Source: Acidimicrobiia bacterium (GTDB lineage Bacteria; Actinomycetota; Acidimicrobiia; Spongiisociales; ZC4RG35). Taken from it: a stretch of DNA of 64,000 bases. The stretch lies in assembly GCA_041747855.1 (NCBI GenBank), contig JBGTEJ010000055.1, forward strand, positions 77,930 through 141,929, in the 5' to 3' direction. The notes below the pieces were generated by a model that did no database searches, was not told the origin of the DNA, and saw only the letters and a list, made by a program, of their open reading frames with translations. The position numbers and the translations under genes were made by a program. Of the stretch, positions 13,170 to 62,237 are shown piece by piece (the first letter of the stretch is position 1; every line of letters begins with the position of its first letter).

Positions 13170-14720
13170 TTGGGTACCGAGGCGCGCATTGAGCAACTGA
13201 GAGAACTCCGGGAACAGGCCCTCAACTCGGGGAACCAGCGCGCCGTCGCCCGGCAGCACGAGGCTGGCAAACTGACCGCAAGGGAGAGGATCGATGCCCT
13301 TCTCGACCATGACTCGTTTCAGGAGATCGACCAGTTCGTACGACACCAGACGACCGGGTTCGGTATGGAGGAGAGAAAGCCCCTTGGCGACGCCGTGGTC
13401 ACCGGCTATGGGACCATCGAAGGTCGTCCTGTGTTCGTGTTTGCGGAGGACTTCACCGTTTTTGGTGGGAGTCTGGGGAAAGTTGTCGCCGACAAGATAT
13501 GCAAGATTCTCGATCTTGCCTTGGAGACCGGGACTCCCGTCATCGGCTTGAAAGACTCAGGCGGTGCACGTATCCAGGAGGGTGTAGCCGCTCTGGACGG
13601 GTACGGACGCATCTTCGAACGCAACGTCCGGGCCTCAGGGGTGATACCCCAGATCTCGGTGATCATGGGGCCTTGCGCGGGAGGGGCGGTCTACTCCCCC
13701 GCTCTCACCGACTTCGTCTTCCAGGTTGACCAGACCTCACATATGTTCATCACAGGGCCTGACGTGATCAAGGCTGTGACAGGGGAAGACGTGACGATGG
13801 AAGATCTCGGGGGTGCGATGACCCACGCAACCAAGTCAGGTGTTACCCACTTCGTTTACCCGAACGGGCCTGACACCCTTGAAGCGGTCAGGTACCTCAT
13901 GTCGTTCCTACCCAAGAACAACATGGAGATGCCCCCGTACTTTGCACCGGCCGACCGTCCGGACCGGATCGACAACTCTCTCGACGGGCTCATCCCCGAC
14001 TCAGCCAGCCAACCGTACGACATGAAGAAGGTCGTGGAGACAGTCCTGGACGATGGCGAGTTCTTCGAGATCAACGAGCGGTGGGCCGGGAACCTGGTCA
14101 TCGGTCTGGGCCGTCTCGACGGGCATACGGTTGGAATCGTCGCCAATCAACCGGCCGTCCTGGCGGGGACACTCGACATCGAGGCTTCGGAAAAGGGCGC
14201 TCGATTCGTCAGGTTCTGTGATGCCTTCAACATCCCTCTGCTCACCTTCGTCGACGTGCCGGGATTTCTTCCCGGGGTCGACCAGGAACAAGGTGGGATC
14301 ATCCGCCACGGGGCCAAGCTCCTATACGCCTACTGCGAGGCAACAGTCCCACGTCTCACTGTCATCACCCGGAAGGCCTACGGAGGGGCTTACCTGGTGA
14401 TGAATTCGCGAGGCATCCGAGCCGACATGGTCTTTGCCTGGCCCTCGGCTGAGATTGCGGTCATGGGAGCCCAGGGCGCGGTCAACATCATCCAGCGTCG
14501 GGACATCGAGGCCGCCGAGGAACCCGAATCGAAGCGGGCCGAGCTGATCGCGGACTATGAGACCAAATTCAACAACCCATACATTGCTGCCGAATTGGGT
14601 CTCGTCGACGAGGTTATCGAGCCGAGAGAAACCCGGGTCAAGCTGGTGCGAGCGCTGGACATCCTGCGTACCAAACGAGAGGTCATGCCCCCGAAGAAGC
14701 ATGGGAATGGCCCGCAATGA
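13170..14720 (+). CDS. pccB: acyl-CoA carboxylase carboxyltransferase (beta) subunit, PccB/AccD5-like
   Basis: GKLTARERI, DFTVFGGSLG, DSGGARIQEG, GPCAGGAVYSPALTD, DVPGFLPG, KAYGGAY, KKHGN; GGAGGA RBS before TTG 13170. Confidence 0.95.
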   Translation: MGTEARIEQLRELREQALNSGNQRAVARQHEAGKLTARERIDALLDHDSFQEIDQFVRHQTTGFGMEERKPLGDAVVTGYGTIEGRPVFVFAEDFTVFGGSLGKVVADKICKILDLALETGTPVIGLKDSGGARIQEGVAALDGYGRIFERNVRASGVIPQISVIMGPCAGGAVYSPALTDFVFQVDQTSHMFITGPDVIKAVTGEDVTMEDLGGAMTHATKSGVTHFVYPNGPDTLEAVRYLMSFLPKNNMEMPPYFAPADRPDRIDNSLDGLIPDSASQPYDMKKVVETVLDDGEFFEINERWAGNLVIGLGRLDGHTVGIVANQPAVLAGTLDIEASEKGARFVRFCDAFNIPLLTFVDVPGFLPGVDQEQGGIIRHGAKLLYAYCEATVPRLTVITRKAYGGAYLVMNSRGIRADMVFAWPSAEIAVMGAQGAVNIIQRRDIEAAEEPESKRAELIADYETKFNNPYIAAELGLVDEVIEPRETRVKLVRALDILRTKREVMPPKKHGNGPQ

Positions 14721-14779
14721 CGTCTGCTTCGCTCGCTGCCGGCCCTTGCTGCTCCCCCCGTCTCGCAGTTAGGTCATGA
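14717..14779 (+). CDS. candidate bridge sORF (20 aa, MTSASLAAGPCCSPRLAVRS)
   Basis: ATG overlaps pccB stop (ATGA); its TGA overlaps the ATG of the alpha subunit (ATGA). Confidence 0.45.
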   Translation: MTSASLAAGPCCSPRLAVRS

Positions 14780-16506
14780 AGAGCCTTCTGATCGCGAACC
14801 GGGGTGAGATTGCGGTGAGGGTCATCCGCACCGCCCGCGAGATGGGCTTGAGGACCATTGCCATCTACTCCGAGCTAGACCGCGACGCCCGACATGTTTC
14901 TCTCGCGGATGAAGCCTGGAATGTCGGTCCAGCACCAGCTGCCGAGAGCTATCTGAACCAACGACGCATCCTGGAGATCGCAAAGGAGTCGAGAGCCGAC
15001 GCGATCCACCCGGGCTACGGATTCCTTTCCGAGAATCCAACTTTTGCAAAGGCTGTTGCCGATGCCGGGATCATCTGGGTGGGGCCACCTGCCTCGGCGA
15101 TCGAGGCTATGGGAGACAAGATCACATCGAGAAGGAACGCAGAGCTCTACGGCGTCCCAACCGTTCCTGGGATCACCGACCCGGTCACCAGTGTCGCTGA
15201 GGTCGCAGAACTCGCCGAGAGGTTCGGGTACCCCATCGCCATTAAGGCCGCCCACGGAGGTGGAGGCAAAGGGCTGCGTGTGGTCACCCAAGATTCGGAA
15301 CTGCAGGAGGCCTTCGAAGGTGCTCGCCGGGAGGCCGACGCCTACTTCGGGAACCCGGCCGTCTATGTCGAGCGATATCTCGAGAGACCCCGGCATGTCG
15401 AGGCCCAGATCCTCTTCGACTCTCATGGCAACGGCATCTTTCTCGGTGAACGTGACTGCTCGGTCCAGAGAAGACATCAGAAGCTGATCGAGGAAACACC
15501 ATCCCCGGGACTCACCGTCAAGCAGCGTCGGGCCCTGAGCAAGGCCTCGCTGGCCGCGGGCAGGTCATGTGGATATGTCAATGCCGGTACCGTCGAGTTT
15601 CTGCTCGACCGGTCAGGTGACATCTTCTTCCTGGAGATGAACACCAGACTCCAGGTCGAACACACCGTCACCGAGATGGTGACCGGTCTCGACTTGGTCG
15701 AATGGCAGATCCGCATCGCGTCCGGGGAAGCTCTCGACATGACCGAAGTGACACCCAAAGGACATGCGATCGAGTTCAGGATCAACGCCGAAGACCCTCA
15801 CAACAGTTACTTGCCCACACCGGGGCAGGTGATCGAATGGGTCGAACCCGCAGGACCCGGGGTGAGGGTCGACTCCTGGATCACCCCGGGAACAGTGGTG
15901 TCCCAGTACTACGACAATCTGATGGCGAAGCTAGTGGTGTGGGGTGCGACCCGGGAAGCGGCAATCGCCCGGGGTCGGAGAGCTCTCGAAGAGTTCCAGG
16001 TGACGGGTGTCGAAACCACAATCCCAGCACACCTGGCGGTGCTCGATCATCCCGACTTCATAAACGGTGACCACCACACCAAGTGGATCGAGGAGGCGGT
16101 TCTGCTGGTACGCACCGTTCCACCGGCACCACCAGGTCTCGCGGAAGGCGAAGAGACCACCAAGAGGGACATCACGGTGGAGGTGAGTGGACGCCGCTTC
16201 CAGGTGTCGTACTGGGCCCCTGAGCCGGTATCAGCCGGGATCCCGCGTCGGCGCGCCCCCAAACTGGCGGCTCCGGGACCCAAAGGGAGCACTGATGGCG
16301 TGATCACCTCCCCGATGCAGGGGACCATCGTCAAGGTGCATGTTCGCGCCGGTCAACCGGTGAAGGCGGGAGAGCCGATATGTGTGCTCGAGGCCATGAA
16401 GATGGAGAACGAGGTGACCGCTCCGATTGGAGGGGACGTGGTCGACCTGAGAGTGGAACCGGGTGACACTGTCACCGCGGGGCAGGTCATCGCCATCATC
16501 AGGTGA
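14776..16506 (+). CDS. accA: acyl-CoA carboxylase alpha subunit (biotin carboxylase + biotin carrier)
   Basis: LIANRGEIAVR, IHPGYGFLSEN, HGGGGKG, RDCSVQRRHQK, EMNTRLQVEH, EAMKME biotinylation motif. Confidence 0.96.
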   Translation: MKSLLIANRGEIAVRVIRTAREMGLRTIAIYSELDRDARHVSLADEAWNVGPAPAAESYLNQRRILEIAKESRADAIHPGYGFLSENPTFAKAVADAGIIWVGPPASAIEAMGDKITSRRNAELYGVPTVPGITDPVTSVAEVAELAERFGYPIAIKAAHGGGGKGLRVVTQDSELQEAFEGARREADAYFGNPAVYVERYLERPRHVEAQILFDSHGNGIFLGERDCSVQRRHQKLIEETPSPGLTVKQRRALSKASLAAGRSCGYVNAGTVEFLLDRSGDIFFLEMNTRLQVEHTVTEMVTGLDLVEWQIRIASGEALDMTEVTPKGHAIEFRINAEDPHNSYLPTPGQVIEWVEPAGPGVRVDSWITPGTVVSQYYDNLMAKLVVWGATREAAIARGRRALEEFQVTGVETTIPAHLAVLDHPDFINGDHHTKWIEEAVLLVRTVPPAPPGLAEGEETTKRDITVEVSGRRFQVSYWAPEPVSAGIPRRRAPKLAAPGPKGSTDGVITSPMQGTIVKVHVRAGQPVKAGEPICVLEAMKMENEVTAPIGGDVVDLRVEPGDTVTAGQVIAIIR

Positions 16507-28856: not shown

Positions 28857-28952
28857 TTGCGCCTGGAGTGCCAAGCCGTGAAAGAAGACCCCGGGGCAGG
28901 GATTCAAAAATGGGGTGTGTTTCCCGCCCCTTTCTACTGTGAAACGCCATGA
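28857..28952 (+). CDS. candidate bridge sORF (31 aa)
   Basis: TTG 8 nt after the MTase stop, preceded by GAGGT; its TGA overlaps the ATG of the GT2 gene. Confidence 0.25.
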   Translation: MRLECQAVKEDPGAGIQKWGVFPAPFYCETP

Positions 28953-42081: not shown

Positions 42082-42094
42082 CCAGGAGGAGTGT

Positions 42095-46554: not shown

Positions 46555-46558
46555 ACCA

Positions 46559-48304: not shown

Positions 48305-48448
48305 GGTGACATTCTGATAGCAGGAGACCAATAACGCCCTGTATGGTGTCGTCCCCGGCCGATAGACGAGGTCGACACTTGCCACCCCGCTCGACACTCC
48401 AACTCAAGAAGCACCGAGAAGAAAACAACCTCGCCGCGAACAACCCAC

Positions 48449-50929
48449 ATGATTGACCGCACCGGGGGAGGGCGGACCCGCTCAGGCGAGCGCCAGAACA
48501 ACGCCAAGAGCCGGTTCGATCCCATTTCTGCGCGGATCAGAGCAGGGCAACTCTTGGCTGATCCCAGCAGGGCTGTCTTTGTGGCTGGTGCAGCTGGGCT
48601 CCTCTCGCTGGCGCTCGCGGGCCTGCCTCTGGCCATCGCTGGAGTGTTCAATCCATGGCTGGTCGGGCCAGCCACTGTGGCGCTCTGGATCGTACTCACC
48701 AGGTTCGCCTTGAGTTCAACCGTTGCCGTCACTAACACCCGGGGCGGTAAGACTGCTTCTTGCCTTGCGCTCGTTATTGCGGCAAGTTTCGCGGCTTTTG
48801 CTACTGCGCATTCAGGCGAGCACCTCCTCACTGACAGGGACCCTGGCGTCTACTTCGTCACCGGCAAGTGGCTAGCCGTCAATGGTGACCTCCTCCTCAC
48901 GACCGGCCTACCAAGCGATGTAAACGAAGCGTTTCCCCCCATATGGCCCATGGGCACATATGGGAGACCCGACCACTCTGCCTACTTCCAGTTCCAGCAC
49001 ACACCCGCAGTGATCATGGCCACTGCCCAGTGGGCAGGCGGAGATTGGTTGATGTTCAGGATCATGGGCCTGGTAGGGGGCATCGGAATACTGGGCGTCT
49101 ACCTATTAGGCCGGACGCTCATCGGTCCTGTGATAGCCCTAGCACCCCTAGTCGCCGCCGCTACCCACCCCGTCTTCATCCACGTCGGAAAAGACGGCTA
49201 CTCCGAGCCTCTGACCTTGGTGTTCACGATGGCGGCCTTTTGGTACTGGCTAGCGATCAGAGAAGGCAGCGGTCCGCGTTCATACTTCGTCGCGGGACTA
49301 CTGCTGGGCGCACCGACGTTGGCCCGGATCGACGGATGGCTTCCAGCGATCGGGTTCTTGGCTGGCCTCACCTACATGGTTGTGACTCACGAAGGCACAT
49401 CAAACCCCACGCGACGCAAAATCCTTGCCCTGGCGACTGGATTCGTTTTCACCTCGGGGCTAGGCCTGCTGGACTTGATGGTCAGGTCACCCGTCTACCT
49501 CAGGGACTTGTCGGGTTCGGCGTTTCCGATGATGGTTACCGCTGTTGCCGTGCTCGTTGCAACCGCCGCGGCTTCCGTACCTCTAGTTCCTCGCGTTGGG
49601 GCCTTGACACGCCGGCTGATAGCCCCAGCCGGAGCCACTTTCGTGCTGTTGGCGGGGATCTACGGTTTGTTTATACGACCGCGAACGACAGTGACACTGG
49701 GCGACCCAATCGCACTAGTCGCCGGGCTCCAAACGAGGGAGGGTCTCCTTGTAGATCCGGCTCGTAGTTACGCCGAAATGAGTCTTGAGTGGATAGCCAG
49801 ATACCAGGGGCACATCCCGGTGGCCTTTGGGATAGCCGCCATCTCACTCGTCGTGTTGCTGGTGCTCCGAGAGCGTGGCAACCGGGCCGTCCCGGTACTG
49901 GTCGCACTCCTGGTCACTGGGACAATCTACTTCTGGAGGCCATCGATCACTCCTGACCACCTGTGGGCGATGAGGAGGTTCGTCCCGGTGGTCCTCCCAT
50001 TGAGCTTCGTATTCGCAGCTCTAGGTGCGCAAATTCTGGTGCGCCGAGCCAAGCGACCCGAATTGGCCACTCCTGGCGTAGCGATCATCCTGACCCTGGC
50101 ACTCACCCAGGCACTGGTTGTCGGGTGGCCGGTTGCTGCGGTGAGGACACAAGCCGGGGTTGGTGGGGCGGCAGGCGAAGTCTGCTCCATGATCCCGCCA
50201 AACGGGGCACTCGTCGTCTCCGAGCGGGCATCAGTGATAGCGGCTGCAGTTCGGACAACTTGTCTTTTGCCGGTGACTGTCAATGACGACCCGCTAGTCC
50301 TGGCTGCGATTCAAAGTGCGGGCCTCATCCCTATTTCCGCATCTTCGGCACCTCGCTGTGACGGAGCGACGATCGGCAAATCAAGCGTACAGTTCGAGTT
50401 CCCGGAACGAACTCTGAGCTTTTCACCCAGGGGTCCCGAACAGGAGCTGCTTGTCGTATACGTGGCAGACGCGACTGCGACGGTTGCCCCGACACAATGG
50501 CTTGACTCACCATTCCCCGAAGCCCTTCTAGCGGTGGAAGTCAGCACCACCTGGACGCCGGATCGCTGGGCCGTCATTGCGTCGATCGGCAACTACGGGG
50601 AAGGAATGTGGATTCAGTATGGTGAATCCGGCGATGTGTCGGTTTGGGTAACAACCGAGCTCGGATTCATTGGAGTCCCAGTCCCCGCACATATCAACAA
50701 CGGAGCCAGCCAGGTCGTCGGTGGGTACGTTGCAGATGGGGTTTTACACGCGATATGTGGCGACCAGATCACGGGCTCGGCTGTTCTTCCAGCGCCTTTG
50801 AGCCTCGTCGACCACGATCTCAACGTCGCCCCTGAGATTCTGGCCGAGGACTTCGAAGTGTTCCTCGGCGATGTGAACGTGATTGCATCGCATTCTGGTT
50901 TCGAACTTGAGGGAGCTCGGTACCGCTGA
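48449..50929 (+). CDS. GT-C-fold membrane glycosyltransferase with extracellular C-terminal (LamG-like) domain
   Basis: DRDPGVY, FQF, YSEP, ARIDG, PDHLWAMRRFVPVVLP; many TMs; beta-rich C-terminus. Confidence 0.82.
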   Translation: MIDRTGGGRTRSGERQNNAKSRFDPISARIRAGQLLADPSRAVFVAGAAGLLSLALAGLPLAIAGVFNPWLVGPATVALWIVLTRFALSSTVAVTNTRGGKTASCLALVIAASFAAFATAHSGEHLLTDRDPGVYFVTGKWLAVNGDLLLTTGLPSDVNEAFPPIWPMGTYGRPDHSAYFQFQHTPAVIMATAQWAGGDWLMFRIMGLVGGIGILGVYLLGRTLIGPVIALAPLVAAATHPVFIHVGKDGYSEPLTLVFTMAAFWYWLAIREGSGPRSYFVAGLLLGAPTLARIDGWLPAIGFLAGLTYMVVTHEGTSNPTRRKILALATGFVFTSGLGLLDLMVRSPVYLRDLSGSAFPMMVTAVAVLVATAAASVPLVPRVGALTRRLIAPAGATFVLLAGIYGLFIRPRTTVTLGDPIALVAGLQTREGLLVDPARSYAEMSLEWIARYQGHIPVAFGIAAISLVVLLVLRERGNRAVPVLVALLVTGTIYFWRPSITPDHLWAMRRFVPVVLPLSFVFAALGAQILVRRAKRPELATPGVAIILTLALTQALVVGWPVAAVRTQAGVGGAAGEVCSMIPPNGALVVSERASVIAAAVRTTCLLPVTVNDDPLVLAAIQSAGLIPISASSAPRCDGATIGKSSVQFEFPERTLSFSPRGPEQELLVVYVADATATVAPTQWLDSPFPEALLAVEVSTTWTPDRWAVIASIGNYGEGMWIQYGESGDVSVWVTTELGFIGVPVPAHINNGASQVVGGYVADGVLHAICGDQITGSAVLPAPLSLVDHDLNVAPEILAEDFEVFLGDVNVIASHSGFELEGARYR

Positions 50930-51084
50930 AAGCGGGACTGGGACTAGCTTGCGGCGGGTATGACAAATTCACCTGCCCGCGCCAGACTTGCCCATTGCAA
51001 CTGCATCCAGCGGCAGATGACGACCGCGTGGACAGCGGTGGGAAAAACATGCATGCAAACCACAACGACGGCGGGTAACTAGGA

Positions 51085-53517
51085 GTGGATCGAATTGCCC
51101 TAATCACAACTGGATCCACCGCCGATATCGACGCGACGCAGGCGCTGGCGACGTCGTCGAGTAGATATTGGCCAGAGGTCGACGTGAAGGTCCTAGTCTC
51201 GAGCCGAGTGGTCCCGCCTCCGACTCACTTGGATGCGACACCGATCCAGGACGTCCACGGCACCGACTTCGTAGTCTCCCGGATCCTCCCAGAGGTCGAC
51301 CAACTTGCCCTCGGCCTGCCGAGTTTTCTAAAGGGGCTCCTCGAGCACTACGAGACCTGTGTCTTCATAGGACCAGGAATGGTGGTGGTCCGCCCGCCTG
51401 CGGAGTTGATTCACCAAGCGCAAGCCACAGGGACAGCCGTGTCTGTTCCGGTCACCGTCACGCCACGCCATTCATTGACCCCGGCACTCGGACCAATAGA
51501 CGCCGGGCCGTTCTTGCCCGAGCCAAGAATTCTGGGGGTCACAAGGGATGCCGGGCCATTCCTCGATGAGTGGGCTGACACTCTCCGGCAGGCGGTCTTG
51601 GAACCAGACCAGCGTCCGCTCTCATGGGTCTCGGAGACGTTCCTCCGTCGCACCCTTTCCAGGGCCAGCGTTAGCGTTGAAGGACAGGGAACCCTCCTCA
51701 ATTGGCCGGAGTACGCAGCGGTCGAGGCTGGTCGGGTGACGGGCACGAACGCATCCATCGTGGCATGTGACTACCTCTTCGATGCAGCTCGAGACTCCGA
51801 TCTCTACGACCATCCGGAAGTGGCATGGGGGATGCTCGTCCACAAGGTTCACGATTCCCGCCCCGTCGAACCGTTAATCGAGATAATCCGTGCAAGCCAG
51901 TGGATCAGGGAGGGCTACAACGAGGAAACTGCGTTCGACCATCTGCGAGCCGCCATCAGAAGAGCTGCCGACCCAACTGGGTTGAAGTGGGGTCCTGAGG
52001 AAGTGGCGAGCTTCGACGCATGGCTGTTCGAAGAGAACGAAGCCGGAACAACCAGATTGGCCGATCTGCTCGTGAAAAGCGACCCAGCGCTCCAGCAACG
52101 CTTCTTCGGGGTCAGGTTCGACCCGGTTCCCTTCCGTCGCTGGGTGGGAGAGAGAGGACGCCTAGAACTCGGCTTCGACCCACTAGACCGCGACTACCCC
52201 GCACGAGAGCCTGAGACCTCGGAAATCGATGTGCGACGTTTGAGGAACGCAATCGGATGGCGATGGAACACCATCAAGACCCTCGTGCCCGGTTACACAA
52301 CTAGAGCCACCAAGAAAGTCCAAGCGGCATTCTTGGGCCCAGATCCAGGCGAGACGCGAGGAGTTGCGCCGCCGCGCCCTGTTCACGTGACCCGAACCAC
52401 CCCTATGTGGGGGTCAAGCCCTCGCGGTCTGAATCTGCTCGGGCCCTTCCGCTCGGAGAGTGGCCTCGGCCAAGCAGCGCGCGCCAGCTTGGAAGCCATC
52501 CGTCTGTTGGATCTGCCTTTCACACACGTCGATACAACGGAGAAGTACCCGTCGAGAAACTCCGTCGATGTGGGGCTCACATTCGCGACACATGGGCAGA
52601 TCGGGGATGTGAACCTGATCCACAGCAACGCCGAAGAGATGTTGACTCTATCGGGTGGAGTCTTCAAACATCGGTTCGGGGGGCGCTTCAACGCGGCCAT
52701 GTGGTTCTGGGAAACGGCTGATCTCCCTCTTCGGGCCAGGGCTGCCTTCCATCTTGTTGATGAGCTGTGGGTCGCCAGCAACTACCAACGGGACGTTTTC
52801 GGTCAGTACGCCAGTGTCCCAATTCACGTGGTCGGTTTAGCGGCCGACCTCCCAGAACGACGAGTTGTCGACAGGACAGGATTTGGTTGGAAGGAAGATG
52901 ACCTCGTCTTTCTCTTCGTGTATGACGCACTGTCGTCCTATGGGCGGAAAAACCCAGTCAAAGCCCTTCAAGCGTTCATTTCCGCCTTTGCCCCAGGCTT
53001 CGAAGACGTCCGGTTCGTCCTCAAGGTGTCGAACCTGAACAAGTTCCCCGCCAGTCAAAAGGAGATACTCGGCCTTGCTGGGAAGTACCCGGCGATAACG
53101 GTGATCGATGAATACCTGTCGCGCGACGATGTGATGGACCTCATGTCCGCATCCGACGTCTATGTATCGCTTCACGCAGCCGAGGGGTTTGGCCTGACAT
53201 TGCTCGAGGCAATGGCCTTGGGCACTCCTGTGATCTGCACCGGATACAGCGGCAACATGGACTTCACCAACGACGCCAACTCGTGGTTGGTCGGCTATGA
53301 CATGATGAAGACCGAGGAGCAGACAGGCCCATATCCGAAGGGTTCGGTGTGGGGTTCACCCAGGCTGACAGATGCCATCGAGATCATGAGACGGATCGGC
53401 GACAATCGATCGGAGATTGCGAGCAAGGCTGAAGCGGCCTACAGGGACGCCTTGTCGGCCGCCTCTCTCGAGTCCTACGCTTCGCGTCTTCAGGAGCACC
53501 TGAGGCGCGTCCTTTAA
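51085..53517 (+). CDS. GT4 glycosyltransferase with large N-terminal degenerate GT-A-like domain
   Basis: ESGLGQAAR, WFWET, VDELWVAS, RKNP, DVYVSLHAAEGFGLTLLEAMALGTPVICTGYSGNMDF. Confidence 0.9.
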   Translation: MDRIALITTGSTADIDATQALATSSSRYWPEVDVKVLVSSRVVPPPTHLDATPIQDVHGTDFVVSRILPEVDQLALGLPSFLKGLLEHYETCVFIGPGMVVVRPPAELIHQAQATGTAVSVPVTVTPRHSLTPALGPIDAGPFLPEPRILGVTRDAGPFLDEWADTLRQAVLEPDQRPLSWVSETFLRRTLSRASVSVEGQGTLLNWPEYAAVEAGRVTGTNASIVACDYLFDAARDSDLYDHPEVAWGMLVHKVHDSRPVEPLIEIIRASQWIREGYNEETAFDHLRAAIRRAADPTGLKWGPEEVASFDAWLFEENEAGTTRLADLLVKSDPALQQRFFGVRFDPVPFRRWVGERGRLELGFDPLDRDYPAREPETSEIDVRRLRNAIGWRWNTIKTLVPGYTTRATKKVQAAFLGPDPGETRGVAPPRPVHVTRTTPMWGSSPRGLNLLGPFRSESGLGQAARASLEAIRLLDLPFTHVDTTEKYPSRNSVDVGLTFATHGQIGDVNLIHSNAEEMLTLSGGVFKHRFGGRFNAAMWFWETADLPLRARAAFHLVDELWVASNYQRDVFGQYASVPIHVVGLAADLPERRVVDRTGFGWKEDDLVFLFVYDALSSYGRKNPVKALQAFISAFAPGFEDVRFVLKVSNLNKFPASQKEILGLAGKYPAITVIDEYLSRDDVMDLMSASDVYVSLHAAEGFGLTLLEAMALGTPVICTGYSGNMDFTNDANSWLVGYDMMKTEEQTGPYPKGSVWGSPRLTDAIEIMRRIGDNRSEIASKAEAAYRDALSAASLESYASRLQEHLRRVL

Positions 53518-54665
53518 TCGAGTACTCGAAGCCTCCGTAGCAACCCATCGAGGTTCCGGGTAGATGCGGCCCACGAATACTGGTTCTCTGATCTGTGGTG
53601 CCCGGCCATGCCCAGCGTCGCCACGAGGCCGGGATCGGCAAGCAAGCGGACAAGGGCGGCGGCGATGCCCTGCGACGTCGGTGGCGCTATCAGACCGTCC
53701 CTCTCATGAGTCACCACCGATCTGTTGACAGGGGTATCGACCACAACGACGGGGGTGCCGTGGGCCCAGGCCTCGAGGGTGGTCATTCCAAACGACTCTG
53801 TCAGCGAGGGGTTGACGACAACCAACGCTGAACCAAGGAGATCCGCCTTGGCTTGCTCCGTCGGGGACTCGACAATGTCGACCCGTTCATCCACTGCCAT
53901 CGGCCCGGCTGGGTCCTTCCCGAAGAGGGGTGGGGATCCGGCAATGACGAGCCTGACGTCAGCGAAGTCTATCCAGACGACCTTCATGGCCTCATAGAGC
54001 ACATCCAGTCTCTTCGACTCCATTCGCCGACCCACAAAAAGAACCACCTGATCCCGGTCACTCTTGATGACACTCGATGCCTCGACCCCCGGTGGTACCA
54101 AAACAGTTGTCGCCGCGTTGGCCCGATAGGCCTCAACGAGGCGACTTCTCTCGTGCGTGGTCAGGGCCATCACGCCGTCCGCCACAGCCACCGCCCCTGC
54201 AACTCTTTCAACTGACCAGTAGGGATCGTGCTCATGCAGCATCGGGGCGTAAACCAGCTTCCAGGCGGCTCTGGTACGGAGACGCATGACTTCCTCGACG
54301 TTGGGAAACAAGTGCGGCAATGTGATTACGACGTCGGGAGCGATGGCTTCCAGGCGGTCGCCCAACCGACTTTGGTAGCGCGAAGTTGCGACTCTCAGGG
54401 CTCTGGCCTTGCCTATCAGGCGACCTGCCTTGTATGCAGGGCCCGAATATGGGAGCCTCTCAACGTCCACATCGCGGATCGTCTCGGCAGGTATCCCCAC
54501 AGGTCTGTGGCCCAGTTCATAGAACGCTTGTGGATCCTCGACGGCTGGGACAACCACCGAGACCCCATGGCCCAGCCCTGCGAGACCCTCGGCGAGTCCT
54601 TGGGCATAGCGCTCGGCGCCTCCGATCGATGGGTGGTATGCGTGGGTCGCGAACACCACTCTCAC
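53514..54665 (-). CDS. GT4 glycosyltransferase
   Basis: [36 protein letters not shown]; start GTG 54665. Confidence 0.92.
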
Positions 54666-54729
54666 AGCGGGTCTGCTCCGGTCTTGTGGGTACCATGCAC
54701 TCTCGTCGCCCACACTAGGGAGTTCACCT

Positions 54730-55707
54730 ATGCCAATTGCTCTCATCACCGGGATTACCGGGCAAGACGGATCCTACCTAGCCGAGTTCCTCCTCGCTAA
54801 GGGGTACGAGGTGCACGGCACAATCAGGACAACAACGCATGACATCGAGGACACCCGGATTGGCCATCTCATGGTCACCGACCCACCGCAGGTCACACTC
54901 CATGTCACCGACCTCGGAGACTCCCACTCTCTGACAAGATTGATCGAAGACCTCCGACCTGACGAGGTTTACAATCTCGCGGCTCAATCTCACGTGCGCG
55001 CTTCCTTCGATCAACCGGTCCACACCGGCGACGTGACGGGGCTCGGGGTAGTAAGGCTCCTCGAGGCGATCAGACACACAGATACTTCGATTCGGTTCTA
55101 CCAAGCGTCAAGCTCAGAGATGTTCGGCTCCACACCACCACCTCAGAACGAGACGACCCCCTTTCATCCTCGGAGCCCATACGCCCTCGCCAAGGTGTAC
55201 GCATATTGGGCAACCGTGAACTACCGGGAGAGCTACGGGATCCACGCCAACAACGGCATTCTCTTCAACCACGAGAGTCCACGAAGGGGAAAAGAGTTCG
55301 TCACCCGGAAGATCACAGCCACGATCCCCCGCCTCATCAAAGGGGAACAAAAGAAGCTGTATCTCGGCAACCTAGACGCAAGACGGGACTGGGGCCACGC
55401 CCGGGACTACGTCCGGGCGATGCACATGATCCTTCAGCATCCTGAGCCATTCGACCTGGTGATCGGAACCGGACAAGCTCACTCTGTCCGTGACTTCCTC
55501 GACGCGGCCTTCGGAGTCGTAGACCTGGACTGGGAGGAGTACGTCGAGATAGACCCACGCTTCTACCGCCCAGCGGAGGTGGACTTCCTCCAAGCCGACA
55601 TCACACAGGCCAGAAACATCATCGGTTGGGAGCCTGAGATCGGCTTCGCAGAACTAGTGCGGGAGATGGTGGAAGCAGACCTCAAAGCCGGTGGCGTGAG
55701 TGCCTGA
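54730..55707 (+). CDS. gmd: GDP-mannose 4,6-dehydratase
   Basis: [66 protein letters not shown]. Confidence 0.97.
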
Positions 55708-56650
55708 GCACTCCCGGATTGAAGGCGCCACCGTACTGGTTACTGGCGGCCATGGCTTCATCGGACGGCATGTGGTCAACGCTCTGCACGAATCCGGGGT
55801 AAGACCCATATCTGTCATCCAACCCTCCACCACTCCTGTGAAGGGAATCCCAGGTGAAACCGTGACGGCTGACCTCACCGATCCTGAACAGTGGGTCGGT
55901 TTGCTAAAGGGTGTCGATTCCGTAGTTCACCTCGCCGCCCGGGCCGGGGGGATCCAGTTTCAACAAAGCTCGGCAACCGATGTGTTCAGATCCAACCGGC
56001 TTCTCACCGACCAACTGCTCGCAGCGTGCGCGACGGCCGGAGTCGAGCGGGTCTTCCTCGCCTCATCACTAGTGACCTATAGACCATCTGCGGATCAGAT
56101 CACCGAAAGCCACCAGCAGTTGGGACCCGCGGAACGGCCTGACCCCTACGCCTGGTCAAAGATCACCGACGAGGTTGTGGCGGTATGGCAACCCGACATC
56201 CAAGTGCTGATCGGCCGCTTCGGCAACGTGTACGGTCCCGGTGCTCTCTTCGACTCGGAGCGCTCGACCGTCGTGCATGCCTTGATAGACAGGGCCGCAA
56301 GGCTGACGGACGGATCAGAGCTAGTCGTATGGGGAGACGGAACCGCGGTGCGGACCTTTGTCTATGTCGAGGACGCTGCCCGAGCAGTGGTCACGATCCT
56401 GGGCGCCGGGTCGGCAGGCGAGGCTTACAACGTAGACAGCGGCGAACGAGTCACTATCGCCGAACTGGCGGAGACGGTGCAAAAGCACGTAAACCCGTCA
56501 CTCAGCATCGACTTCGATCCTTCGAAACCGGCCGGTGTCCCGTTCCGGGTGGCCTCGATCGCGAAACTCAGTGGTCTCGGTTACTCCCCCGCAGTCGATC
56601 TCGACGAGGGGGTGCGGCGCACTGTCGGCTGGTACCGCGACACCCAATGA
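55700..56650 (+). CDS. NAD(P)-dependent GDP-sugar epimerase/reductase (Fcl/GME-like SDR)
   Basis: [44 protein letters not shown]; directly after gmd. Confidence 0.88.
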
Positions 56651-56691
56651 CCGCCGATCTCGAGGATCTTCCCTCCGAGGGGGTTCCGTGA
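56647..56691 (+). CDS. candidate bridge sORF (14 aa, [14 protein letters not shown])
   Basis: ATGA overlap with the SDR stop; its TGA overlaps GTG 56688, in frame with the downstream GT2. Confidence 0.35.
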   Translation: MTADLEDLPSEGVP

Positions 56692-56735
56692 TCGGCCGAC
56701 AGGAGGCTGACCTCACCGGATACCATCCTGGTGCG

Positions 56736-57674
56736 ATGACCGATCAACCGACCGAAGCCATTGACGTATCGGTCGTCCTACCTGTCTACAACGAGATCGG
56801 ACACCTGCGGGAAGAGATCGAGAGAATCTCCAAGTCGATGGAGGCCTCCAAGTACTCGTTCGAGATCTTGGTGATAGACGACGGTTCCACAGACGGATCC
56901 GGCGAGGAGCTGCTCGAGATCGAAGGAATCAGACTGATCCAGTTCCTCCAGAATCGAGGGTCGGGCGCGTCTCGAAAGGTTGGAACTCATCAAGCTCGTG
57001 GTGACATCGTGGTTTGGACCGACGTCGACCTGACATACCCCAACGACGATATCCCGAGTCTCCTGGACGAAATGCCGGGATGGGATCAGGTCGTGGGTGC
57101 CCGCACCTCGGAACAAGGAACGCACCGGTTTCTTCGTGTTCCTGCGAAGTGGTTCGTGAGGAGGCTCGCCGAATTCCTCACTGCAACCAAGATTCCCGAC
57201 CTGAACTCAGGTTTCCGTGCCTTCCGACGGGAGGTCGCCGACCAGTATCTCCATCTGCTGCCATCTGGCTTTTCATGTGTCACCACGATCACCCTCGCCT
57301 TTCTCGCCAACGGATACTCGGTGAAGTACATTTCAATCCCCTATTACCCCCGAGCTGGCGAGTCCAAATTCCACTGGTGGTCGGATACCCGGCGCTATCT
57401 CCAACAGGTGGTCAGAATGGTGTTGTCGTTCAATCCCATGAAAGTTCTCATGCCGGTCGCTCTCGTCATCCTTCTCCTCGCCTCAGGAAAACTGATCTAT
57501 GACGTCGTGGGCAGCGAAGTTAGAGTCGCGGGCAACACACTCCTGCTGTTCTTTGCAGGATTCACCGTGCTCCTCGTCGCATTGATCGCAGACCTAGTTG
57601 TACAGGTCAACAAACCAACCCACGAGGTAGATCCGGCACACATCACCCACCACAGATCCGGACCCATGCCCTAG
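56736..57674 (+). CDS. GT2 polyprenol-phosphate glycosyltransferase (DPM synthase/GtrB-like)
   Basis: VSVVLPVYNE, IDDGSTDG, NRGSG, WTDVDLTY, VVGAR, DLNSGFRAFRR, two C-terminal TMs; alternative start GTG 56688. Confidence 0.9.
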   Translation: MTDQPTEAIDVSVVLPVYNEIGHLREEIERISKSMEASKYSFEILVIDDGSTDGSGEELLEIEGIRLIQFLQNRGSGASRKVGTHQARGDIVVWTDVDLTYPNDDIPSLLDEMPGWDQVVGARTSEQGTHRFLRVPAKWFVRRLAEFLTATKIPDLNSGFRAFRREVADQYLHLLPSGFSCVTTITLAFLANGYSVKYISIPYYPRAGESKFHWWSDTRRYLQQVVRMVLSFNPMKVLMPVALVILLLASGKLIYDVVGSEVRVAGNTLLLFFAGFTVLLVALIADLVVQVNKPTHEVDPAHITHHRSGPMP

Positions 57675-57682
57675 CCCCTTTA

Positions 57683-59104
57683 CTACGACGGGGCCAACCT
57701 GAGCGTCGAGATGGCAGCCACCACCTCACCTTCGTAGGACCCGACTCCGTACGATCGGGGGGACCACGCTCCCTCGGCGCTGACGTGTACTTCCTGGTCG
57801 GTCGGCAAAACCTCAGTGGGGATCTCGAGGGTATACCACTCGCCGCTGGCGGGGATGACATGCTCTGTTTGCACATCGTTGTGGCGGACAGCCAGCGTGG
57901 TTCTCTGGGAAACGCCTTCTGGTGGTCCAAGGAGCTCGATTCTCAGAATTCCAGGACCGCTGAACCGTGGTGAGACCAAGACCCTCGCCCATTGCCTGCT
58001 TGGAATCCATCTCGCTTCGCGCCCGAGCACATGCTCACGTTCAAGGAACCCGTCAGTCTGAAGATCGTCGTTCCGGCCGACTTCCATATCTGGGAGCACC
58101 ACCCTCCAGAGAGCCTGCCTACTCTGATAGAGCCACTCTGGATACCGCCACCTATCTGGACCGAAAGCGCCCGCGACTGCGAAAACGTACTCACCCCGGT
58201 TTGTTGAAACGACCTGCGGCATCCGTGCAACGGACTCCGGTGGCACCGGATTGACATCGGCAGTGAAAACGCGAATCGGGTCGAACCCGAGTTCCGAGAA
58301 AATGGTCTTCAACTCGGCCACGGTGTACTCCCTATTGTGGCGACCCTGAACGCCGTAGCCGGACATCGGTTCGTAGACATTCTCACCCTTGAGCATTTTC
58401 ACCAGATTCTCTTGGCGCACCGGATTCGGCGTACTCAGGATGAGAAGGCCACCTGGCTTCTTCAGGACTCGATGGATCTCAGCCAGCGCGTTTATTGGGT
58501 CAAGCGCAAGATGCTCCAAGATCTCACAGAAGTAGACGGCATCGAACTTGTCGCTGTCATACGGAAACCGGCCCTGCTCGATATCGAAATGGTCATACTC
58601 GATCGCGAGGCTCTCACCGGTCCGCGAGTTGACCACGTGTTGAGTGCCCTTGGTGCCTTCGATCGACTGGTCGCCGAACCAGTTGGCACAGGTCACATCT
58701 AAGCCACGACGCAAGAGCATGCGCGTGAAGAAGTACGGGTTCGCCCCCAGTTCAAGTACTTTCGCATTCGGGTCCAAAGCCGGCGTCACCGCCAGTGTGA
58801 TCCGGAAGCGTTCGAGGGCATGCCAGAGATAGGCGCGACGTTCCGCTTCGTCGAACCCGGAAAGCGCGGCCTCGAGCAGGAAGTCTCTCAGGGCTTCGCG
58901 ATCGGTGAGATCTGGAGGGAAATCAATCTTCTCTTCTTGTTCGACTTCGCCCTTCTCCTCTGTTGGTGACTGTTGGACAGGGCGCCTTCCTGCCAGCGAC
59001 TTGTACAAGAGAGATAGCCTCAGCTTTAGCCGTTCAGGCAAAGCCCACAGCACACGCCGTGCTGCGCGGCCCAGCACACCGGCTCCACCTCCTCGATTGG
59101 TCAT
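57683..59104 (-). CDS. SAM-dependent methyltransferase with C-terminal beta-sandwich domain
   Basis: VLELGANP, FDAVYFCEILEHL, EIHRVLK.PGGLLILSTPN, HNREYT; AAGGAG RBS. Confidence 0.9.
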   Translation of the reverse strand: MTNRGGGAGVLGRAARRVLWALPERLKLRLSLLYKSLAGRRPVQQSPTEEKGEVEQEEKIDFPPDLTDREALRDFLLEAALSGFDEAERRAYLWHALERFRITLAVTPALDPNAKVLELGANPYFFTRMLLRRGLDVTCANWFGDQSIEGTKGTQHVVNSRTGESLAIEYDHFDIEQGRFPYDSDKFDAVYFCEILEHLALDPINALAEIHRVLKKPGGLLILSTPNPVRQENLVKMLKGENVYEPMSGYGVQGRHNREYTVAELKTIFSELGFDPIRVFTADVNPVPPESVARMPQVVSTNRGEYVFAVAGAFGPDRWRYPEWLYQSRQALWRVVLPDMEVGRNDDLQTDGFLEREHVLGREARWIPSRQWARVLVSPRFSGPGILRIELLGPPEGVSQRTTLAVRHNDVQTEHVIPASGEWYTLEIPTEVLPTDQEVHVSAEGAWSPRSYGVGSYEGEVVAAISTLRLAPS

Positions 59105-59253
59105 GCCTGCTCCTTCAAATGACCGGATACCACCAGACCAAGTGTCACTTTTGCCGGCTCCGGGCTTTTTCGATGCCGGTTCGGGACTCCATCAATTCTG
59201 GCGCCTCCCTCGTGGTAACTGAGGGGTGGACTTGAAGCATGACTCAAGGTCAA
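59101..59253 (-). CDS. candidate bridge sORF B (50 aa, TTG start)
   Basis: TTG overlaps the stop of sORF A (TTGA); its TGA overlaps the MTase ATG (ATGA). Confidence 0.35.
   Translation of the reverse strand: MTLSHASSPPLSYHEGGARIDGVPNRHRKSPEPAKVTLGLVVSGHLKEQA
59231..59253 (-). promoter_or_regulatory. imperfect 18-bp palindrome adjoining TTGACC (possible MerR-type operator/promoter)
   Basis: CTTGAAGCATGACTCAAG matches its reverse complement at 14/18; minus strand reads TTGACC-TTGAGTCATGCTTCAAG; no good -10. Confidence 0.3.
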
Positions 59254-59348
59254 GCGAAATCCTCTGGGGGACGCGTTGATGCGCGGAGTTGGCCACCGTG
59301 TTCAGGATCAGGACCATGGAAACAGTGCAAAGCTTGTTCGTAGCTCAT
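59250..59348 (-). CDS. candidate bridge sORF A (32 aa, MSYEQALHCFHG...DFA)
   Basis: ATGA overlap with the GT4 stop; its TGA overlaps the TTG of sORF B. Confidence 0.35.
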   Translation of the reverse strand: MSYEQALHCFHGPDPEHGGQLRASTRPPEDFA

Positions 59349-60466
59349 TGCCCGGGAGGAGAGGCGTTGAACTGTCGGGCCAGAGCCTCAACCACACCCG
59401 AAAGAGCATCTATGGGCTGCGGGCGAGCTGCCGCGCCCCGAACAAGATCATGCAGGTGACCATCCACGTGCTCAATAGCGTCGGCAAGGGACGGGGCGGA
59501 GCCGGGTTGGAACAGCACACCGTCGCTGCCGTCGCGGATCTGCTCGGCGAGGCCAGGCAAATCAGAAGCCACGACGGGTCTATGGCATCCGTGAGCCACC
59601 GGGGTAATGGCCGATTGTGATGCAGAGAGATACGGCAGCAGCACGACATGGTGATTAGCAATCGCGGTGATCAGATCCTCGTCGGAGATATATCCATCTT
59701 CGAGATCGACCAACGATTCCAGACCCAACTGATCCCGCAGCACCGTGGCTTCTTGATGAGTAGGACTCCAGAATTCGCCAACAACAGTGAGCCGCACCCC
59801 TACGCCCCTCTGGTGGAGTAGTTTGATCGCCTTCAAGGCCAATTCCAGCCCCTTGTAGGGCCGCACATACCCGATCATCAGGATCCGGAGTGGCGGCTGT
59901 CCTGGAAGCTCAGCCGGTGTGCCCACCAGAACACTCGGCATAGGCACACTTCTGACATCAGCTTGAGGGACCAAGTGAAGAACCTGGTTCCGAACCTCGT
60001 CAGAGTGAACTACCACCGCGGCGGACGAGCCGATCGCCCATCGTGTGAGAACCCTTCGCATTGGAAACCACTCGTGGGTCTCAACGTTGTGAACCAACAA
60101 GATCGTCGGTACCGGTCGAGCCGCCCATGCCGAGACGACAACTGCGAGAACATGAAACGGGGTGACCCAGGGCTGCAATAAGACATCACATTTGCGGGCC
60201 CGCCTCCCGGCACGCCACCAGCTCCAAGGACTCCACCAGCGGGCCTTGAAGTCTGCGTCGGGACTACTAGCCAGCATTTCTGACTTTGACGGCTGGGTCC
60301 CGTGGTATATCCACCCTGGGTACTGGGACGCCCACGATATCGCCGTGACCTCGTGGCCACCACTTCGAAGCGATGCCAACAAGGCAGTCGCATGTTGGGC
60401 AACTCCTCCGCGATAAGGGGCCAGTGTCCCGAAGTAAGAAAACTCGACGCTGTTCCTCAATTTCAA
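59345..60466 (-). CDS. GT4 glycosyltransferase
   Basis: PYRGGVAQH, HNVETHE, GYVRPYKGL, VVGEFW, LPYLSASQSA, PVVASDLPGL. Confidence 0.92.
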   Translation of the reverse strand: MKLRNSVEFSYFGTLAPYRGGVAQHATALLASLRSGGHEVTAISWASQYPGWIYHGTQPSKSEMLASSPDADFKARWWSPWSWWRAGRRARKCDVLLQPWVTPFHVLAVVVSAWAARPVPTILLVHNVETHEWFPMRRVLTRWAIGSSAAVVVHSDEVRNQVLHLVPQADVRSVPMPSVLVGTPAELPGQPPLRILMIGYVRPYKGLELALKAIKLLHQRGVGVRLTVVGEFWSPTHQEATVLRDQLGLESLVDLEDGYISDEDLITAIANHHVVLLPYLSASQSAITPVAHGCHRPVVASDLPGLAEQIRDGSDGVLFQPGSAPSLADAIEHVDGHLHDLVRGAAARPQPIDALSGVVEALARQFNASPPGQ

Positions 60467-60565
60467 CTCAGTTCAGGCATGCTGCGGAACCACTGGGGTT
60501 CGACCGCGAAGAATGCCGAGCGTTCGATACCGGCCACCAGACGAATCGGCAGAACTGTTGAGCAA

Positions 60566-61297
60566 TCAGACGGAGCCGACATAGGCTTGCACAACCTCTT
60601 TTGGATCACCCATCATCACAGTGTGTCCTCGATCAAGCCAGAGAACACGATCGGAGACCTCCTCTACCGCATCCAAATCATGTGACACGAAAAGCACGGC
60701 GGCGCCCGAGTCGATGAGCTGAATCATCCTCTCCTTTGACTTCAGCTGAAACGAGGCATCACCTACCGATAGGACCTCGTCGATTACCAGGACATCCGGT
60801 TCTATGTCCGTGGCAACCGCAAATCCGAGGCGTGCCAGCATGCCAGACGAGTAGGTGCGTATAGGGACGTCTACGAACTCGTTCAACTCGGCCCAGTCGA
60901 GAATGTTGGCCACTCTCTCCCTCATCTGCACCGGAGTCCGACCCAACAGCGTCCCATAGAGGACGATGTTTTCACGAGCGCTCATCTCCGTGTTGAACCC
61001 GGCGCCAAGCTCGATCATCGGTGCCACCGCCCCCCGCACCACGATCCGGCCCTCCGTGGGTGGCAACACCCGGGCCACGATCTTCATCAGTGTGCTCTTG
61101 CCAGCACCGTTGCGTCCGATAACCCCAAGGACTTCACCCGAACTCAGCGAGAAGTTGACGTCCTTCAACGCCCAGACCTCCTCGCTTGCGGTCTTTCCCT
61201 TGACGACGTCGATGGCGAACCCCTTGATAGTGCCCGCCCGGTTCCTGTTGTGCCGGTAGGCAAGGGACACACCCGTCGCCTCCACAGCGGGCTTCAC
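60566..61297 (-). CDS. wzt: ABC polysaccharide exporter ATP-binding subunit (no C-terminal CBM)
   Basis: GRNGAGKST, ELGAGF, YSSGMLARLGFAVA, LVIDEVLSVGD, VSHD; GTGA overlap with wzm. Confidence 0.94.
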   Translation of the reverse strand: MKPAVEATGVSLAYRHNRNRAGTIKGFAIDVVKGKTASEEVWALKDVNFSLSSGEVLGVIGRNGAGKSTLMKIVARVLPPTEGRIVVRGAVAPMIELGAGFNTEMSARENIVLYGTLLGRTPVQMRERVANILDWAELNEFVDVPIRTYSSGMLARLGFAVATDIEPDVLVIDEVLSVGDASFQLKSKERMIQLIDSGAAVLFVSHDLDAVEEVSDRVLWLDRGHTVMMGDPKEVVQAYVGSV

Positions 61298-62121
61298 AGC
61301 ACTACCACAAGATTCTTCCATGATCTCGTGAAGACCCAGACCCCCAGCAACAGAACCACGATGGCGCTGGCGATCATCATCACGAAGTTCCAGGTCGGAG
61401 CAAAGGCGCCCTCATAGACGAAACCCCGAAACACGGTGAGATATGAATAGAGGGGGTTGGCCTGAATAATCCAACGGAAGTGATCGGGAATCATCGTGAT
61501 CGGGTAAAAGGTCGGGGTTAGATAGCTGATCAGTTGGACTCCGACTGCAGTCAGGTCGAGAACGTCGTAAAAAAAGACGGCAGCTGAGGCCACCAAAAGC
61601 CCCAGACCCGCCACCAGAAGCAGTAGGAAAAAGGCTGGGATCGGGACCAGGATGACCGTCCAAGGGATCCCCACCCCAGTGAACAACTGGATTACCAGCA
61701 GAGGAAGAAGGCTGATGGTGAAGTTCACAAGTGCAGCTACTGCGGCCGCAACTGAAAACACCTCGGCAGGGACATAGACCTTCGACAGCACAGACGCGCT
61801 GTTGACTATCGACGATCCAGTGGCAATGACCCCTTGGGCAAAGAAAGTGATGAAGACGATCCCGGAGAGCAGATACACCACGAAGGGGACACCCGGGATC
61901 TCGAATCGGAAGACCTGGCTGAAGACGACCCAGAAAACGGACATCGTGAGCAGCGGGTTGAGGAGCGTCCACCACACTCCCAGAGTCGACCGCTTGTACC
62001 TCACTGTCAGATCGCGTGTGACCAACAGCCGCAACAGTCCGCGATACACCCAGATGTTGGTGAGTTCGGTGACGATGGGCCGACGAGACTGGTCTGAGTC
62101 GTAGACGTAGGTCGAGGTCAT
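61294..62121 (-). CDS. wzm: ABC polysaccharide exporter permease
   Basis: RDLTVRYKRSTLGVWWTLLNPL, YLTPTFYP, NPL; about 6 TMs. Confidence 0.94.
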   Translation of the reverse strand: MTSTYVYDSDQSRRPIVTELTNIWVYRGLLRLLVTRDLTVRYKRSTLGVWWTLLNPLLTMSVFWVVFSQVFRFEIPGVPFVVYLLSGIVFITFFAQGVIATGSSIVNSASVLSKVYVPAEVFSVAAAVAALVNFTISLLPLLVIQLFTGVGIPWTVILVPIPAFFLLLLVAGLGLLVASAAVFFYDVLDLTAVGVQLISYLTPTFYPITMIPDHFRWIIQANPLYSYLTVFRGFVYEGAFAPTWNFVMMIASAIVVLLLGVWVFTRSWKNLVVVL

Positions 62122-62237
62122 ATGTGATCGGGTCGGTTCAAGCCTTGTGACTGACCCCTGGCGCCGAAGGCTACTAGGTACGTAAACCTCTGGAATGGCA
62201 AGGGCAATCTGGTTCGGTCCGGTTCCCGGTGGGTCAT
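62118..62237 (-). CDS. candidate bridge sORF (39 aa, MTHREPDR...PDHI)
   Basis: ATGA overlap with the upstream stop (62234) and ATGA overlap with the wzm start (62121). Confidence 0.45.
   Translation of the reverse strand: MTHREPDRTRLPLPFQRFTYLVAFGARGQSQGLNRPDHI

Follow-up and report, generated by a model that had tools for sequence, protein, structure and literature searches.

How can the translation of one gene remain coupled to that of the next when a gap lies between them? Re-initiation is commonly held to couple two genes only when they overlap or lie a few bases apart, and gapped operon junctions are therefore usually read as independently initiated. The question is raised by a stretch of 64,000 nt from an Acidimicrobiia bacterium (contig JBGTEJ010000055.1, C55:77930-141929, here referred to as "the window"; the genome, G000, comprises 2.09 Mb in 95 contigs with about 61% G+C). 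An initial annotation of this stretch, made from the letters alone, had pointed out small open reading frames (sORFs) that exactly fill gaps between co-directional genes and overlap the neighbouring genes at both ends. We followed these frames in the window, at conserved junctions of related genomes and across the gene sets of two genomes. As a result, we consider it probable that the spacers of the window are translated relay cistrons which preserve termination-reinitiation coupling between the genes on both sides.

Anatomy of the proposed relay frames

Ten intervals of the window were translated. Seven of them, the primary sORFs, are intact, contain 14–50 codons and agree in every detail with the initial annotation. 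Each begins with an NTG one base before the TGA of the upstream gene and ends with a TGA that overlaps an in-frame NTG of the next gene. A stop/start overlap of 4 nt (NTGA) is thus found at both ends of all seven; the beginnings are ATGA in six and TTGA in one (at 59253), and the ends are ATGA in five, GTGA in one and TTGA in one.

The first relay sORF (14717-14779, + strand, 20 codons) connects a pccB-like carboxyltransferase gene (13137-14720, +; Pfam PF01039, 666 bits) with an accA-like gene for biotin carboxylase/BCCP (14776-16506, +) across a spacer of 55 nt. Its ATG lies on the pccB stop and its TGA on the accA ATG, both in the form ATGA. Three others are also on the + strand: 17 codons at 41492-41545, from a GT4 gene (39879-41495) to rmlC (start 41542); 35 codons at 43842-43949, from rmlD (42967-43845) to an FAD oxidoreductase gene (43946-45145); and 14 codons at 56647-56691, from an epimerase/SDR gene (55700-56650) to a GT2 gene (GTG 56688). 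On the − strand, 39 codons at 62118-62237 lead from gene 62234-63271 to wzm (ABC-2 permease, ATG 62121). The remaining junction, also on the − strand, is crossed in two steps. The first step (59250-59348, 32 codons) begins with ATGA on the stop of a GT4/GT1 gene (59345-60466) and ends with TTGA, and the second (59101-59253, 50 codons) begins with TTG on the stop of the first and places its TGA on the methyltransferase ATG at 59104.

The downstream starts were also reached independently of the sORFs. Our home-made gene caller, which combines hexamer coding scores with iterated start-codon and Shine-Dalgarno (SD)/ribosome-binding-site weights, is blind to short ORFs and to the end of the upstream gene, and it picked the same six starts as the initial annotation (14776, 41542, 43946, 56688, 62121 and 59104). 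Moreover, Pfam profile positions back the starts of accA (position 3 of PF00289 falls on residue 2, which supports 14776), the oxidoreductase and rmlC, the last having an alternative ATG at 41527, 15 nt upstream. Homologues of wzm align from residue 1, in support of 62121, and so do homologues of the oxidoreductase, but with different upstream genes. The start at 56688 is the least certain, with the GT2 domain beginning 27 residues after it. The caller also missed or truncated some genes; for example, the GT4 gene at 59345-60466 was called from 59941. Pfam agrees with the names of the carboxyltransferase, biotin carboxylase/BCCP, GT4, rmlC, rmlD, FAD oxidoreductase, epimerase, GT2, GT4/GT1, methyltransferase and ABC-2 permease genes. 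Gene 62234-63271 (−) had been labelled a glycosyltransferase; no Pfam family matched it at E ≤ 0.001.

The same junctions in related genomes

We call a junction bridged when the frame opening one base before the upstream stop has as its first stop a TGA exactly on the called downstream start. Upstream genes ending in CTGA, TAA or TAG, where no start codon overlaps the stop, served as the no-start control. The pccB-accA set, drawn from the taxonomic family and order, comprises 91 loci (90 without our own genome), with the accA start set by alignment of the N-terminus. The other junctions scanned are bridged in G000 and syntenic in a relative of the same genus (G007; 1.45 of about 2.2 Mb retrieved, identical pipeline); each was followed in 10–30 loci of the family, own genome excluded, and the gene names were checked by Pfam. 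Four unbridged junctions from a seeded random draw were added as negative controls.

At pccB-accA, 32 of the 90 loci have direct −4/−1 overlaps, 24 are bridged with a start codon and 2 without, 24 are unbridged and 8 are long. Its short gaps fall into the remainders 1, 0 and 2 of length mod 3 as 31:12:7. The bridged loci show 15 distinct lengths, which form a near-continuous series (4, 7, 10, 13, 16, 34, ... 97), and the encoded peptides are unrelated. A similar picture is seen at nuoI-nuoJ (n=26; 9 direct, 13 bridged with a start, 1 without, 2 unbridged, 1 other overlap), where the 13 bridged cases have 13 distinct lengths of 10–190 nt. At secY-adk (n=29), 9 loci are direct, 15 bridged with a start (7–193 nt, 14 distinct lengths), 2 bridged without, 2 unbridged and 1 long. 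Nearly all bridged lengths at these three junctions are 1 mod 3. L310, an extreme case among these loci, shows the arrangement on direct reading: secY (1501-2814, −), a 66-codon sORF (1304-1504, −) and adk (729-1307, −) follow one another with a 4-nt overlap at each end.

Counting each distinct combination of length and state once against a no-start baseline of 8.8%, we obtained p-values of 9e-8 for pccB-accA, 9e-12 for nuoI-nuoJ and 4e-12 for secY-adk, which are rough because related genomes are not independent samples. Distinct bridged lengths nevertheless require separate indel histories, despite the kinship of the genomes. The signal is lower at aroB-efp (n=28; 0 direct, 9 bridged with a start, 3 without, 16 unbridged; p=0.005) and nuoM-nuoN (n=29; 4 direct, 5 bridged with a start, 3 without, 14 unbridged, 3 other overlap; p=0.017). 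At nuoK-nuoL (n=28; 0 direct, 1 bridged with a start, 23 unbridged, 4 long) p is 0.87. A junction next to a gene for a WYL protein (C24) is a direct overlap in all 10 relatives and bridged in none. At the random control junctions, bridging with a start was found in 1/14, 0/24 and 0/1 loci (1/39 in total; the single locus of the last reflects a strict E-value limit), and the fourth (C50:31657) is a −1 overlap with a miscalled start, not a gap. A start codon is present in 66 of the 77 open bridging frames at the five junctions, with 11/77 start-less. The relay starts in the family scans are GTGA in 35 cases, ATGA in 26 and TTGA in 10.

As judged from these alignments, direct overlap and relay are interchangeable states at some junctions, and it is the geometry that is conserved: the upstream stop carries a start codon, the frame stays open and the downstream start carries a stop, with neither sequence nor length maintained. 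The initial annotation had proposed that the spacers are under selection. For this geometry, selection is strongly indicated at pccB-accA, nuoI-nuoJ and secY-adk and more weakly at aroB-efp and nuoM-nuoN.

Two side observations concern the junctions above. First, among 25 short gaps at nuoK-nuoL (loci L254-L283), the remainders 1:0:2 are 12:1:12, with only one length of 0 mod 3; this set is limited by a NuoL start that is poorly defined by alignment. Second, C50:31657 of G000 and 11 relatives (L402-L412) have a "gap" of constant length, 80 nt; the upstream stop reads TGATG, and the downstream frame is open back to that ATG. The downstream gene probably starts 27 codons earlier than called, through a −1 overlap.

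Proposed passage of ribosomes and origin of the spacers

We propose that a ribosome ending the upstream gene at UGA would re-initiate on the AUG, GUG or UUG overlapping that stop, translate the spacer whatever peptide it encodes, terminate at the UGA overlapping the downstream start and re-initiate there. The relay would thus restore the coupling of a direct −4/−1 overlap across gaps of 7 to about 190 nt. Selection would act only on a start codon that overlaps the upstream stop, a frame kept open (a gap of 1 mod 3) and a stop that overlaps the downstream start, and it would do so at junctions where coupling matters, such as those between complex subunits or in housekeeping operons. With selection limited to these features, such junctions would absorb insertions while coupling is kept. 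The comparative pattern fits a published study (PMC10666635) in which re-initiation in E. coli and H. volcanii was almost lost once about 20 nt separated the genes, and in which complex subunits showed an enrichment of overlaps. More tentatively, relay cistrons may serve this actinobacterial family, and perhaps other lineages with high G+C and many overlaps, as a general device under selection by which coupling-dependent junctions absorb insertions of any sequence.

Could the same arrangement arise by mutation alone? Small mobile or repeat elements could enter at an NTGA overlap and copy its four bases, which would leave NTGA-spacer-NTGA behind with no need for the spacer to be translated. Known MIRU repeats do carry tetranucleotide direct repeats and ORFs overlapping both neighbours (PMC3184786, PMC12548453), and some relatives' relay spacers are themselves dispersed repeats. 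The secY-adk spacer of G035 (L323, 1844-1930; also in G059 and G062) belongs to a family present in three genera, with 25–28 matches in each genome that frequently form arrays of 21-nt period; the family has no match in G000 and looks MIRU-like. In G000, 5 of the 30 bridging spacers contain dispersed repeats, and the C24 relay derived from the −4 overlap that is kept in 10/10 relatives. Duplication alone, however, explains neither the correct length class nor the absence of stops over as much as 190 nt. Of the six window spacers, the five tested (all but the two-step one from GT4 to methyltransferase) have no other match in the genome, and 25 of the 30 bridging spacers of G000, a set that likewise leaves out the two-step spacer, are unique. 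The near-continuous series of bridged lengths and the rarity of start-less frames also speak against this explanation, and a survivorship filter on insertions would itself be selection for coupling. We therefore regard a purely mutational by-product as unlikely.

Longer inserts occur as well. Four same-genus relatives carry pccB-accA inserts of 505–587 nt that hold an antisense gene. In G005 (L010), the sole insert searched against Pfam, the antisense gene (1996-2352, −; within 1918-2430, +) belongs to PF05635 (23S rRNA intervening-sequence protein). Short GTACC-like repeats flank this gene, and the sense frame crosses it without a stop for 170 codons, from the pccB GTGA to the accA ATGA. The −4 origin of the C24 relay, the repeat spacers in relatives, this open frame and the uniqueness of the window spacers tested lead us to see relays as those insertions and expansions at coupling-dependent junctions that have survived. 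The initial annotation had offered in-frame scars of deleted genes as a source of the spacers, an origin that these long inserts and the C24 relay do not bear out.

Further repeats were noticed in the spacers. The nuoI-nuoJ spacer of G035 has a translated motif related to its secY-adk repeat. The nuo spacers L252, L256, L262 and L279, from different junctions and genera, share the translated motif ARFARRxPFxVxRxPYG, which suggests a second repeat family read in one frame. In G000, the nuoM-nuoN spacer (C71:51737-51854) matches three tandem copies on C32:7156-7372 (period about 76 nt) and single copies on C17, C90 and C88. An RNA element in the spacers was also considered and rejected: Rfam has no match in the window, and the window spacers appear unstructured, with fold z-scores of −1.8 to +1.1. 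No promoter- or terminator-like sites were found in the four gaps within the scanned range 41000-60999, which excludes the pccB-accA gap and the gap at 62118-62237.

Another explanation is that the spacers are translated merely to shield the mRNA from Rho or RNases, with no ribosome handed over to the next gene. Rho is encoded in the genome, and tightly coupled overlaps of M. tuberculosis have been proposed to suppress Rho-dependent termination (bioRxiv 10.1101/2022.06.01.494293). Any translated frame would suffice for such coverage, however, and the exact overlap of the stop with the downstream start would not be required; it is this overlap which is conserved, alternating with direct −4/−1 overlaps at the same junctions. 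Conservation of frame but not of sequence argues for ribosome hand-over because selection for hand-over predicts it, whereas mere coverage or peptide function does not. Coverage by itself is accordingly an improbable account.

Relays resemble several known systems in part. Direct stop/start overlaps (ATGA, TGATG; Huber et al. 2019, PMC6728339; PMC10666635, 2023) have the same tetranucleotide as each relay end. They alternate with relays at the same junctions among relatives, and the pairs concerned often belong to one complex (pccB/accA, nuoI/nuoJ, nuoM/nuoN). Unlike them, relays are two overlaps in series around an expendable cistron, and they span gaps far longer than the approximately 20 nt that sufficed to break coupling in the pairs tested from E. 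coli and H. volcanii (PMC10666635). The intercistronic MIRU repeats of mycobacteria (Supply et al. 1997, as described in PMC12548453 and PMC3184786) are among the closest precedents, together with the RTGA- and NUGA-coupled small ORFs considered below: a small ORF in the insert overlaps both neighbours and is read there as preserving coupling after insertion. The window shares with them the ORF that overlaps the upstream stop and the downstream start. Membership in a repeat family was not found for the five spacers tested, which are unique sequence; unlike MIRUs, moreover, the relays vary freely in length and their host belongs to Acidimicrobiia.

Other parallels come from transcript leaders. 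Leaderless small ORFs of mycobacteria that are coupled through RTGA (Shell et al. 2015, PMC4633059) place their TGA on the annotated start, as the window sORFs do, with the architecture conserved and the peptide not. NUGA overlaps between upstream ORFs (uORFs) and ORFs or between two uORFs, also in mycobacteria, have been proposed to deliver ribosomes, perhaps countering Rho (D'Halluin et al., bioRxiv 10.1101/2022.06.01.494293), and a related notion of "ribosome delivery" appears in a 2025 review. As far as these sources describe them, such ORFs begin at the transcript 5' end or in the leader, whereas relays begin on the stop of an upstream gene and link two full-length genes. The synthetic bicistronic design cited in PMC12548453 has a short leading cistron coupled by overlap, as here, but it is engineered, has its own SD sequence and has no upstream gene feeding it. 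MIRU ORFs and RTGA- or NUGA-coupled small ORFs were thus known beforehand. For non-repeat intercistronic relays conserved in frame only, with an overlap at both ends, we found no earlier description in the literature beyond MIRUs, although such ORFs may be included in the supplementary tables that accompany Shell 2015 and D'Halluin 2023.

If relays work in this way, many apparently non-coding spacers would be translated with frame as their only constraint, and they would be overlooked by any annotation pipeline that discards short ORFs lacking conservation. They would form a class of ORFs that selection maintains because they are translated and not because of what they encode, and would offer a way to tell from sequence only which gene pairs need translational coupling. 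The pattern would also explain how repeats and cassettes settle inside tightly coupled operons. The alternation of direct overlap and relay at pccB-accA, nuoI-nuoJ and secY-adk supplies concrete pairs in which passing a ribosome on twice can be tested.

Bridged gaps in two genomes and the polysaccharide cluster

We further counted bridged gaps over G000 and the retrieved 1.45 Mb of G007. G000 has 1361 co-directional junctions, among them 311 overlaps of −4, 59 of −1 and 519 gaps of 21–200 nt. Within this gap range, bridging was found in 14/40 ATGA, 9/59 GTGA and 7/58 TTGA ends, and in 15/176 CTGA, 2/35 TAA and 9/151 TAG ends. The ATGA class exceeds the no-start ends (26/362, 7.2%) with an odds ratio (OR) of 7 (p=3.7e-6), and it still does so outside the window (9/35 vs 25/352, p=0.0015). 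In the window itself, all five ATGA-ended gaps of 21–200 nt are bridged, and a sixth, of 240 nt, is bridged in two steps; at 5/5 against 9/35 elsewhere, the window thus stands out even from the rest of its genome. In G007 the corresponding counts are 2/30 ATGA, 11/68 GTGA, 5/34 TTGA, 10/151 CTGA, 4/20 TAA and 4/78 TAG.

When both genomes are pooled, 48/289 start-bearing and 44/611 no-start junctions are bridged (OR 2.6, p=2.9e-5). All three components contribute, with start-bearing vs no-start fractions of 0.40 vs 0.34 for a gap of 1 mod 3, 0.76 vs 0.58 for an open frame and 0.54 vs 0.37 for a downstream NTGA. The excess holds within gap-length strata. It becomes 53/306 vs 48/594 when −1 overlaps are counted too, and for gaps of 1–20 nt the numbers are 31/115 vs 27/254.

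Several results weigh against reading the spacers as selected relays, in addition to the kinship of the genomes behind the junction p-values. In G007 alone, the difference for gaps of 21–200 nt is not significant (19/138 vs 20/243, p=0.11), and its ATGA class is bridged in 2/30 only. With each start placed at the earliest NTG that follows the upstream stop, a smaller excess remains (44/270 vs 55/616, OR 2.0, p=0.0024), and under a crude first-ATG rule it vanishes (39/436 vs 52/599); we attribute this loss to overlapping genes with GTG or TTG starts, which that rule takes for gapped ones and so adds to the denominator of the start-bearing class. Start-bearing TGA ends make up 47% at co-directional gaps vs 41% at convergent gene ends (p~0.08 per genome), and the corresponding enrichment of ATGA is weak (p~0.4). 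SD matches occur at 44% of bridged downstream genes vs 35% of others. Over the 542 junctions syntenic between G000 and G007, bridged ones are labile: the gap length changes by a multiple of 3 in 8/21 bridged vs 68/184 other junctions, and 5 of the 8 non-gene bridged junctions of G000 (syntenic, gap >20 nt) are unbridged in G007, with gap lengths of, for example, 34/27, 22/21 and 40/39.

The genome-wide signal is thus real but modest, fragile and dependent on start calling. The initial annotation had called the relays systematic, which is too strong a word for 48/289 junctions in two genomes, one of them not significant alone. The genome-wide surplus for which it had suggested a count is present over no-start ends but slight over convergent ends, and conservation of length mod 3 with diverging sequence, which it had suggested as a test, is borne out at the conserved junctions but not over the two genomes as a whole. 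A relay as replacement for the SD sequence was also considered and rejected, as bridged downstream genes show no difference in SD class.

These counts also bear on chance as an explanation. At 60% G+C many off-frames are open, an A follows about 37% of starts and TGA is the main stop, and some NTGA-to-NTGA frames would therefore arise with no function. In fact, no-start frames reach the downstream start exactly in the 7.2% of pooled cases given above, the loss of the excess under the first-ATG rule and the result for G007 agree with chance, and the window was chosen for its striking look. Against this stand the 5/5 of the window over that baseline, the pooled excess and, above all, the 13–15 distinct bridged lengths at each of three junctions (p from 1e-7 to 1e-12), with 1/39 at the controls. 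Chance is disfavoured for the set as a whole, and we rate it as very unlikely.

The idea that the sORFs encode functional micropeptides, such as a carboxylase epsilon subunit remnant after pccB, can hardly be maintained, because the window peptides have nothing in common with their counterparts at the same junction in relatives, lengths run from 2 to about 65 codons and hexamer coding scores are negative for nearly all; its one supporting case is a peptide-conserved ORF on C48. The score per codon is negative for four of the five listed window sORFs (that of 35 codons has +0.15), as it is for each of the 32 bridging sORFs listed from outside the window. Thus, of the marks of a conserved small protein, neither sequence conservation (pccB-accA peptides) nor coding-like composition (hexamer score) was found. 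The AccE (carboxylase epsilon) remnant was dropped as a candidate for the pccB sORF on account of the completely different peptides among relatives, and no family search was made for it. The ORF on C48 of G000 (near 3608, −) has 94 codons, four CxxC pairs and an NTGA overlap with both neighbours; it was missed by the gene caller, and its peptide is conserved in G007 (111 codons). By these features it is a real, putatively zinc-ribbon-like small protein.

A polysaccharide cluster holds five of the six window cases, and the comparison there also tells against the relay reading. No orthologous junctions were found for them in 30 relatives, nor in 6 contig loci around wzm homologues or 5 metagenome loci around oxidoreductase homologues, and a metagenome scan with the GT4 protein gave no match. 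In related clusters of other metagenome-assembled genomes (MAGs), 0/7 NTGA-ended gapped junctions are bridged. By analogy with the conserved junctions, we infer that these five relays would work in the same way.

Three looser cases had been listed beside the primary sORFs. The frame at 28857-28952 (+) is open from the upstream stop (CTAG), has its first TTG 9 nt downstream and ends with ATGA on the start at 28949; its downstream overlap is confirmed, and we class it among the no-start exact frames. The other two fall short: 23764-23651 (−) is an ORF but begins with ATGG and ends with CTAG, with an overlap at neither end, and 60565-60463 (−, 103 nt) meets an in-frame stop after 30 codons, 6 nt before the TTG start.

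Finally, the wzm protein (61294-62121) has 82–85% identity to contigs titled as Acidobacteriota MAGs and 67–83% to Acidimicrobiia MAGs, and the gene order around it differs among these homologous contigs. The identities point to transfer of the cluster, or to errors of binning or labelling.

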